Part shown: piece by piece, positions 92-222 of the stretch | Layout of the letters: each line of letters opens with the position of its first letter | Numbering within the stretch: the stretch's first letter is position 1 | NCBI RefSeq assembly: GCF_003334335.1 | Contig: NZ_QOWQ01000239.1 | DNA length: 222 bases | Reading direction: 5' to 3' (one strand) | DNA from: Escherichia coli | GTDB lineage: Bacteria; Pseudomonadota; Gammaproteobacteria; Enterobacterales; Enterobacteriaceae | Notes under the pieces: model-generated | What the model was told of the DNA's origin: nothing | Databases searched by the model: none | The model's input: only the letters and a program-made list of their open reading frames with translations | Position numbers and translations under genes: made by a program

Positions 92-222
92 TTACAGCAT
101 TGTGCCCGGTTCGGGTTGTGTGTCTGTCATATCCGTCACCGGTGACTCCGGCTGAATATCACCATTTTCCGTGGTGACATCTTCCGCCTGTGGTTCCGGA
201 AGCAGTTCCGGGGATGGTTCCG
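92..222 (-). CDS. 3' end of a protein-coding gene (partial; start codon lies beyond the right edge of the window). Product not recognised; the C-terminal 42 residues form an acidic Pro/Glu/Thr-rich low-complexity tail.
   Basis: The reverse-complement frame starting at + position 220 is open for 42 sense codons and ends at a TAA stop (+ strand 'tta' at 92-94). Translation: EPSPELLPEPQAEDVTTENGDIQPESPVTDMTDTQPEPGTML*. The other two minus-strand frames hit stop codons inside the window (TGA at + 136-138 and + 159-161). Codon choice looks enterobacterial (CCG, CTG, GAA, CAG, GAT, GCG). The stop lies 10 nt upstream of a terminator hairpin on the same strand. Bases 221-222 belong to a codon split by the window edge. 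No homology search was possible, so the product is unassigned. Confidence 0.6.
   Translation of the reverse strand, partial: EPSPELLPEPQAEDVTTENGDIQPESPVTDMTDTQPEPGTML
193..222. repeat. Short direct repeat with 12-bp period (core GTTCCGG on + strand, CCGGAAC on the coding strand), truncated by the window edge
   Basis: GTTCCGG occurs at + 193-199 and 205-211, and GTTCCG at 217-222 (cut by the window end), an exact 12-nt spacing. On the coding strand this gives three consecutive 4-codon units, gaa-cca-tcc-ccg / gaa-ctg-ctt-ccg / gaa-cca-cag-gcg (EPSP / ELLP / EPQA). Only the 7-nt core is conserved between units. Confidence 0.45.

Follow-up and report, generated by a model that had tools for sequence, protein, structure and literature searches.

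Which protein ends in the acidic tail encoded by a 222-nucleotide stretch of an Escherichia coli contig (NZ_QOWQ01000239.1, assembly GCF_003334335.1), and what may such a tail do? Within this stretch, hereafter the window, positions 92-220 of the minus strand translate into EPSPELLPEPQAEDVTTENGDIQPESPVTDMTDTQPEPGTML followed by a stop, and an earlier, sequence-only reading had taken these residues for an intrinsically disordered acidic tail or linker of a protein that it could not name. All 222 of the 222 bases (100%) recur without a change in several chromosomes of E. coli and in Escherichia phage PhiR12_1, where the matching regions are annotated as 'DUF826 domain-containing protein' and 'class II holin family protein'. 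A 96-codon gene ends in this frame; its product, MSEIKSLVTAEAVKEVLRSEEVRSALKQQLRQNLEARLDAEVDAILDELLGAQPEPSPELLPEPQAEDVTTENGDIQPESPVTDMTDTQPEPGTML, is identical to RefSeq WP_001289720.1 ("DUF826 domain-containing protein"), and we regard it as virtually certain that window positions 95-220 encode the tail of this protein. In a locus of E. coli strain EC2 (L001), and at the same coordinates in that of PhiR12_1 (L002), the DUF826 gene occupies positions 6092-6382 on the minus strand; when the frame is extended to the right of the window, all 96 codons are recovered up to an ATG at L001 6382, and neither a frameshift nor a stop, such as would betray a pseudogene, lies upstream. DUF826 is a cytoplasmic prophage protein, the gene of which belongs to the late operon of a lambdoid prophage in E. 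coli, and of the phage or plasmid origin that had been considered for the tail, the phage part is borne out by the identical copy in PhiR12_1. Both the sequence and the family were already known, the protein being annotated and the family catalogued but uncharacterised.

The window holds the final 42 codons of the gene (95-220, residues 55-96 of WP_001289720.1), its TAA stop codon (92-94, minus strand), 75 nt of intergenic spacer and the start (five codons) of the holin gene S; bases 221-222 are part of the preceding proline codon, and the complete tail, 45 residues from A52 to L96, begins just beyond the window edge (the tail feature itself spans 95-222, minus strand). A direct count over the 42 residues gives 8 Pro, 7 Glu, 4 Asp, 6 Thr and no Lys, Arg or His, with a net charge of -11, in exact agreement with the figures first reported. 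Apolar residues are few (Leu, Met, Ile and Val together make up 8 of the 42, Met only 2), and acidic residues account for 26% of the tail, diluted by Pro, Thr, Gly and Gln. Binomial estimates based on approximate amino-acid frequencies of the E. coli proteome (our own figures) gave probabilities of 0.004 for the lack of Lys, Arg and His, 0.005 for at least 11 Asp or Glu and 0.0004 for at least 8 Pro among 42 residues; since these values are small, the composition is not expected to have arisen by chance. Moreover, frameshifted database variants of the same DNA gain 5-11 basic residues at once, and therefore the exclusion of basic residues is a property of the reading frame and not of the DNA composition. 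A stronger argument than the binomial estimates is that the acidic and proline-rich bias is kept in homologues whose tails barely align.

Homologues were collected by word-indexed and exhaustive hidden Markov model (HMM) searches of 1.84 billion representative sequences, which revealed a small family with only 58 representatives at E <= 0.001, confined to Enterobacterales as judged by source names. The first 51 residues are nearly invariant in the 26 full-length members, and the tail evolves quickly in sequence and length, through substitutions as well as indels. Approximately 50 distinct complete tails comprise 27-50 residues, with 4-12 acidic, 0-3 basic (nearly all 0-1) and 4-10 Pro residues, so that the earlier question of whether homologues keep the tail or differ in its length receives a double answer: the composition is kept and the length changes, all length differences between tail classes being in-frame indels. 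The 45-residue tail of the present allele is among the longest. Part of its extra length is explained by an in-frame 24-nt quasi-duplication (PEPSPELL / PEPQAEDV; 182-222, minus strand), recognisable as a 17-nt direct repeat at 182-198 and 206-222 (PEPQAE / PEPSPE) that is spaced by 24 nt and 76% identical; it makes the tail six residues longer than most classes and is visible as an indel in our alignment A1.

Does this variation reflect a tail that is translated at all? In a codon-level comparison of eight representative alleles, the ratio of nonsynonymous to synonymous substitution rates (dN/dS) was 0.33-0.6 in the tail, where values were taken only if dS was unsaturated, and 0.02-0.25 in the N-terminal domain (N-domain); between some classes the tail dS was saturated while the N-domain dS was only 0.2-0.4. 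Since dN/dS stays below one, and since saturated tail dS is found beside low N-domain dS, the tail is translated, weakly constrained and mosaic. It could be argued that the frame is not a real coding tail and represents a pseudogene remnant, or a region serving a gene or an RNA of the other strand. We consider this effectively refuted. Nothing was found in its favour, though database entries with frameshifted tails exist (P0009, P0013, P0046); such variants are mostly singletons or small clusters, whereas the intact forms fall into clusters of up to several hundred members. The open reading frame (ORF) is intact, its start is conserved, the tail dN/dS is below one, and indels between classes are all in frame. 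Additionally, the plus strand of the window carries only ORFs of 25 and 26 codons and no credible gene that could compete with the minus-strand reading of positions 92-222, and no Rfam family scored above threshold, or even near its gathering score, in the window. The sequence-only reading had assumed that the minus strand carries the expressed frame, and this holds, the frame being the last part of a gene that is intact and annotated.

The folded part of the protein had been predicted to lie outside the window, and a helical DUF826 domain is indeed encoded to its right. An HMM search with the whole protein matched residues 1-57 to positions 1-59 of the 75-position Pfam model DUF826 (PF05696; E 8.8e-29, score 99.9); this model extends into the tail by a few residues only and leaves most of it uncovered. 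PHROG 311 (E 4.6e-37) and PHROG 8301 also match, neither with an assigned function. An AlphaFold2 model of DUF826, built on a 26-sequence alignment, predicts helices at residues 10-17 and 20-49 with a predicted local distance difference test score (pLDDT) of 87-95, followed by coil from residue 52 to 96 with a pLDDT of about 40 (39-43), which increases slightly, to 54, in the last block. Residues 1-51 (MSEIKSLVTAEAVKEVLRSEEVRSALKQQLRQNLEARLDAEVDAILDELLG) are strongly charged and, read from the sequence, lack any hydrophobic stretch; AlphaFold2 predicts them to form amphipathic helices, and on this model they are the conserved helix pair of the DUF826 domain. The charge-hydropathy relation places the tail on the disordered side (mean hydropathy 0.39, the boundary being 0.50) and the N-domain on that of folded proteins, and order-promoting residues make up 16% of the tail. 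Low pLDDT, coil, charge-hydropathy and in-frame length changes agree in this respect, and we consider it highly probable, as far as such predictions go, that the tail is disordered, as originally proposed. The proposed analogy with periplasm-spanning linkers is not supported, given that residues 1-51 are charged and contain no hydrophobic stretch resembling a signal peptide or a membrane anchor. The whole protein has an isoelectric point (pI) of about 4 and a net charge of -15.5. No match to DUF826 was found among the NCBIfam profiles, in PADLOC or, at E <= 1, among the sequences of the PDB; DUF1378, the product of the neighbouring gene, was searched in PADLOC only and had no match there. Foldseek against the PDB returned a single match with a meaningless E of 5.8. 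A role in defence or anti-defence was considered and rejected, as neither PADLOC nor NCBIfam gave a match.

Is there any part of the tail that is conserved beyond its composition? Comparison of the tails shows that the C-terminal tip, QPEPGTML in the present allele (95-118, minus strand), is their only sequence-specific conserved element. In nearly all complete tails, the final two or three residues at the carboxyl end are apolar or Thr, and they usually come after (Q/T)P(E/D) and small residues. Among the tails compared, the tips were GTML, VMML, EMMM, DMMM, SIML, ATML, ATLL, ATTL and SAMM, with ATILP in Citrobacter. In alignment A1, the penultimate residue M95 is invariant and P90 nearly so. 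Moreover, the pattern persists in relatives with only about 45% identity in the N-domain and with otherwise unalignable tails, and it is shared by relatives from Citrobacter and from a Mu-like prophage. Among the analogies that had been offered for the tail, that with partner-recruiting tails is favoured because the apolar C-terminal tip is conserved, and no functional reading is proven by it.

The setting of the gene adds a second regularity. In the late direction, L001 encodes the antiterminator Q, a DNA methyltransferase, tRNA-Ile, tRNA-Arg and a TolA-like lipoprotein, then an SASA-family esterase (NanS-p, 659 aa), DUF1378 (60 aa) and DUF826 (96 aa), and finally a class II holin, a YdfR-family protein, lysozyme, spanin and terminase. 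The homologues of phage 933W (L0106) and of the Sakai prophage Sp5 (ECs1211) are likewise placed after nanS-p/DUF1378 and before holin S. Long-tailed DUF826 directly follows the SASA/NanS-p region in 164 of 166 informative loci, in most of which a class II holin lies downstream of it, and DUF1378 was detected in every locus having NanS-p. The order nanS-p - DUF1378 - DUF826 is kept in lambdoid prophages of E. coli, in lambdoid prophages of Citrobacter and in Mu-like prophages of E. coli; in the last (L170-L172, 1600-4250), the cassette lies between a gin-like invertase and com/mom with no holin nearby, the esterase is without its N-terminal DUF1737 domain, and the DUF826 protein of the cluster (P0118) is listed in 910 blocks of the contig collection. 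The most distant members of the family come from Salmonella enterica (61 aa), from Pantoea (59 aa) and from one rare E. coli source (60 aa, on a contig too short for context), and they have only 8-10 residues after the helices. The short genes of Salmonella (L177-L179) and Pantoea (L174) lie downstream of lysis genes of the Rz/Rz1 type, without NanS-p and DUF1378. The helical core alone thus appears to be the ancestral unit, and the long tail looks like a lineage-specific addition accompanying the nanS-p/DUF1378 cassette. As regards the features of a moron, a terminator-like hairpin is present, and a simple scan in the direction of the genes saw no sigma-70-like promoter within or before the cassette.

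DUF1378 is a small one-pass membrane protein, the cytoplasmic part of which (RAVRDFWRRQIDKRAAEK) is basic, with an Arg/Lys-rich juxtamembrane segment. As a separate observation, DUF1378 proteins (L001 6420-6602 and the homologues in L165, L167, L172, L175 and L180) also end in short Pro-containing apolar tips, namely PEDLLIP, PEEPLI, NNQTLP and STPLP, and in Citrobacter DUF1378 (...QTLP) and DUF826 (...ATILP) end alike, which may be a coincidence of low complexity.

What might a tail of this kind do? Tentatively, and as the reading that we favour, we postulate that it is a polyanionic flexible tether presenting a C-terminal docking tip to a partner. The helical domain would serve as a specific anchoring or oligomerising module, and the tail as a flexible, negatively charged tether, stiffened by prolines, the exact sequence and length of which would be free to vary. 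The conserved tip, with (Q)P-E/D-x-x, two or three apolar or Thr residues and a free carboxylate, would dock onto a partner protein. Since long tails occur only with the cassette, candidate partners would be DUF1378, NanS-p or a host protein.

NanS-p was examined as a partner in two ways. In a co-fold, NanS-p, a (GGGGS)x6 linker and DUF826 were modelled by AlphaFold2 as a single chain, with six paired rows (query included) and 22 unpaired NanS-p homologues. Covariation was measured as adjusted mutual information (AMI) over unique combinations from 124 loci. The AMI of the tail class was 0.62 with the adjacent terminator segment, 0.28-0.35 with NanS-p alleles, 0.21 with the DUF826 N-domain and 0.02 with the holin. 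The tail and the downstream terminator thus travel as one mosaic block that is shuffled against the alleles of NanS-p, DUF1378 and holin (L003-L164), the nearly invariant DNA of the N-domain being the likely recombination junction, and allele-specific recognition of NanS-p is not supported.

Several of these results weigh against a docking tether. In the co-fold, the tail stayed coil with a pLDDT of 30-40 and did not dock, in what was a weak test (the mean pLDDT of NanS-p was about 61, with no inter-domain error map); tail classes did not covary with NanS-p alleles, and one NanS-p allele was found with four tail classes. No tip-binding partner was found, NanS-p being the sole candidate examined. 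The conservation of so short a tip, with only one codon available for Met, could possibly lie at the DNA level near the stop codon. Furthermore, the association of long tails with the cassette rests on few independent lineages, about three with it and about two without, and our literature search turned up no experiment on any DUF826 protein.

Much of the above could also be read in terms of an unspecific acidic 'bristle', the charge and prolines of which keep the helical domain soluble, protect it against unwanted contacts with membranes, nucleic acids or the capsid, or tune the lifetime of the protein, with the apolar end being incidental or purely a signal for stability or turnover. The great freedom of the tail in sequence and length (27-50 residues, with dS saturated between classes) beside a nearly invariant N-domain would be expected of such a device, as would composition being the main conserved property; almost tailless relatives exist and show that the core domain can work without a tail, no docking was predicted by the co-fold, and tail class does not covary with the NanS-p allele. 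This reading leaves unexplained, however, why nearly every complete tail ends in apolar or Thr residues despite their scarcity elsewhere, and why long tails are restricted to the nanS-p/DUF1378 cassette, and we rate it as an unlikely, though serious, alternative.

A special case of the docking tether is that the tip docks on the sialate O-acetylesterase NanS-p itself, controlling its folding, activity, localisation or release. Although the order nanS-p - DUF1378 - DUF826 is strictly conserved in three prophage settings and the tailless relatives lack nanS-p, the tail was still disordered in the co-fold, the same NanS-p allele pairs with four different tail classes, and the gene linkage could be mere inheritance of one mosaic block; we find this special case very doubtful. 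With slightly less reserve, as an improbable speculation, we consider that DUF826 and DUF1378 are dedicated accessory factors of NanS-p and that the three genes form one functional module, and, as a part of the same idea and equally improbable, that the acidic tail arose to carry a docking motif linking the helical protein to NanS-p, DUF1378 or a host factor.

The charge of the protein suggests yet another possibility, namely that the tail (-11) is a polyanionic mimic or electrostatic binder that engages a basic surface, either as a decoy or in a fuzzy complex. Its target could be the Arg/Lys-rich juxtamembrane segment of DUF1378 or a nucleic-acid-binding protein of the host, and both the reading and these candidates seem improbable to us. 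They are in line with the overall charge of -15.5 and pI of about 4, with the near-total exclusion of basic residues in all tails, and with the constant adjacency of the DUF1378 gene, whose product has a basic cytoplasmic part (RAVRDFWRRQIDKRAAEK). The charge density is only moderate, however, at 26% acidic residues diluted by Pro, Thr, Gly and Gln, and no similarity to known DNA-mimic or anti-defence families was detected in NCBIfam, PADLOC, the PDB or by Foldseek. Acidic phage DNA mimics such as T7 Ocr and ArdA are rigid, folded arrays of carboxylates and are expressed early. DUF826 resembles them in being a small, very acidic phage protein with a pI of about 4 and differs from them in its disordered tail, in its late-operon gene and in the lack of any match in sequence, family or fold.

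For the tether with a docking tip, closer parallels exist. Disordered acidic C-terminal tails with a hydrophobic tip recruit partners in E. coli SSB (...DFDDDIPF), phage T7 gp2.5 and the ribosomal stalk proteins L7/L12 and P1/P2. Like SSB, gp2.5 and the stalk proteins, DUF826 combines a small folded or oligomerising N-domain with a variable low-complexity linker and an apolar tip beside acidic residues. Unlike them, it has a tip based on Met and Leu and not on aromatic residues, and its N-domain is a helical pair and not an OB fold; the sequences show no similarity, and no docking with NanS-p was predicted for the tail. The resemblance would thus be one of mode of action and not of family. The Pro- and Glu-rich extended segment also recalls the linkers of TonB and TolA, which, in contrast to the DUF826 tail, have a signal peptide or anchor (none is read from the DUF826 sequence) and a Lys-Pro half and lie between domains and not at the end of the protein; hence, the DUF826 tail probably does not work in the TonB/TolA manner. 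L001 also encodes two small lipoproteins (3126-3452 and 9246-9674, minus strand) annotated as 'TonB family protein' and 'cell envelope integrity protein TolA', which have nothing to do with the DUF826 tail; their N-termini are lipobox-like, and their RefSeq names point to C-terminal TonB/TolA-type domains.

Within its own family (PF05696 / PHROG 311, of enterobacterial lambdoid prophages, including 933W L0106 and ECs1211), the present protein is a full member that differs in nothing of kind. Disordered acidic tails are common, and the feature is of an ordinary kind; the new points are modest, namely that the C-terminal tip is conserved, that the tail is lineage-specific in origin and that it is strictly associated with the nanS-p/DUF1378 cassette of Shiga toxin (Stx)-type and related prophages. 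Together they give a first descriptive picture of the DUF826 family as a helical core with a lineage-specific polyanionic tail and an apolar tip. The cassette adjoins the Shiga toxin genes in Stx phages, and thus belongs to medically important prophages. If the tail recruits a partner, it would offer a route to the roles of two uncharacterised prophage genes. If the three genes form a module, the enzyme whose activity, localisation or release it would control is one that enables Shiga-toxin-producing E. coli to use the sugars of host mucin.

How widespread is the gene, and what has been recorded of it? Matches to the window were found in 1922 of 5426 complete E. coli genomes (about 35%), nearly all of them chromosomal; most of these 1922 are lower-identity homologues or partial, and 361 genomes have a single match that spans 80% or more of the window. 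Matches also occur in 233 phage records, mostly of Stx-converting phages. A full-text literature search found DUF826 named in one paper, solely as an ORF of unknown role between nanS-p and S in Stx2a phages (PMC10462455), and ECs1211 appears once, in a microarray table, as being lower at a growth transition and thus growth-phase responsive (PMC2241611); because there are several paralogous prophage copies per genome, the latter entry shows only transcription. A full-text search for 933W L0106 returned nothing. Two further names are in circulation. The label 'head completion protein', carried by the PhiR12 and PhiR5 phage records, finds no support in Pfam, PHROG, NCBIfam or the PDB, and the name 'uncharacterized membrane protein YheB (UPF0754 family)', given by one source to a Citrobacter farmeri homologue, is unsupported by our profile searches.

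Where does the protein begin? Records give 96, 134 or 148 residues for the DUF826 gene (148 for 933W L0106), and the frame is open for 45-70 codons upstream (L001 6383-6600, minus strand) in nearly all variants, with one exception of 29, overlapping DUF1378. We rejected the forms of 134 and 148 residues as functional proteins, since, where the two frames overlap, substitutions are synonymous for DUF1378 and radical for the extension (G/D, I/T, Q/L, K/E). The start Met of the 96-residue form is invariant among aligned members, and in distant relatives it is immediately preceded by GGAGA, GGGAGG or AGGAG. The 96-residue start is favoured because of the overlap substitutions, this invariant internal Met and the strong Shine-Dalgarno sequences of the distant relatives. 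DUF1378-DUF826 fusion proteins are also on record (P0036, P0076), joined at GAT-AAA-AGG (L001 about 6495, minus strand). The fusion site places a rare Arg codon after a Lys codon within an A-run, which would be a classic context for +1 slippage, and prophage tRNA-Arg and tRNA-Ile genes lie upstream. We nevertheless consider a programmed +1 frameshift from DUF1378 into DUF826 unlikely, since the fusion entries carry odd substitutions or second frameshifts and are probably due to sequencing errors in the A-run. Further upstream, in the spacer between nanS-p and DUF1378 (L001 6661-6735, plus strand, antisense to it), there is a weak Rfam match to the enterohaemorrhagic E. coli small RNA Esr41 (20.5 bits, where the gathering score is 102; E 0.34), which is probably due to chance.

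On the other side of the gene, the stop codon of DUF826 is followed at once by an intrinsic-terminator-like element (44-94, minus strand), in which a G+C-rich stem of 12 bp (82-54) precedes the T-run TTTTGTTGTTG (z = -3.3). It lies inside the late operon, 38 nt before the start of the holin gene, and marks the 3' end of the nanS-p/DUF1378/DUF826 cassette, a conserved accessory unit of three genes of which DUF826 is the last, placed here immediately ahead of the pinholin gene S. A hairpin with a T-run is found at the same position in all tail classes and also in the Mu-like context, the sequence of the stem differing, and this positional conservation suggests a real terminator or an RNA-stability element. 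The remainder of the window holds the 5' end of the class II (phage 21-type) holin gene S (1-16, minus strand, by annotation), with an ATG at 16-14 and a second Met codon at 7-5 (MYQME...). Just before it, a small hairpin (CTTCCG-AGTA-CGGGAG; 39-24, minus strand) pairs the probable Shine-Dalgarno sequence GGGAG of the holin gene; across loci its stem is conserved and its loop varies (GAGTA, GATTG, GATAA). The two-Met start and its hairpin recall the dual-start regulation of the S genes of lambda and phage 21.

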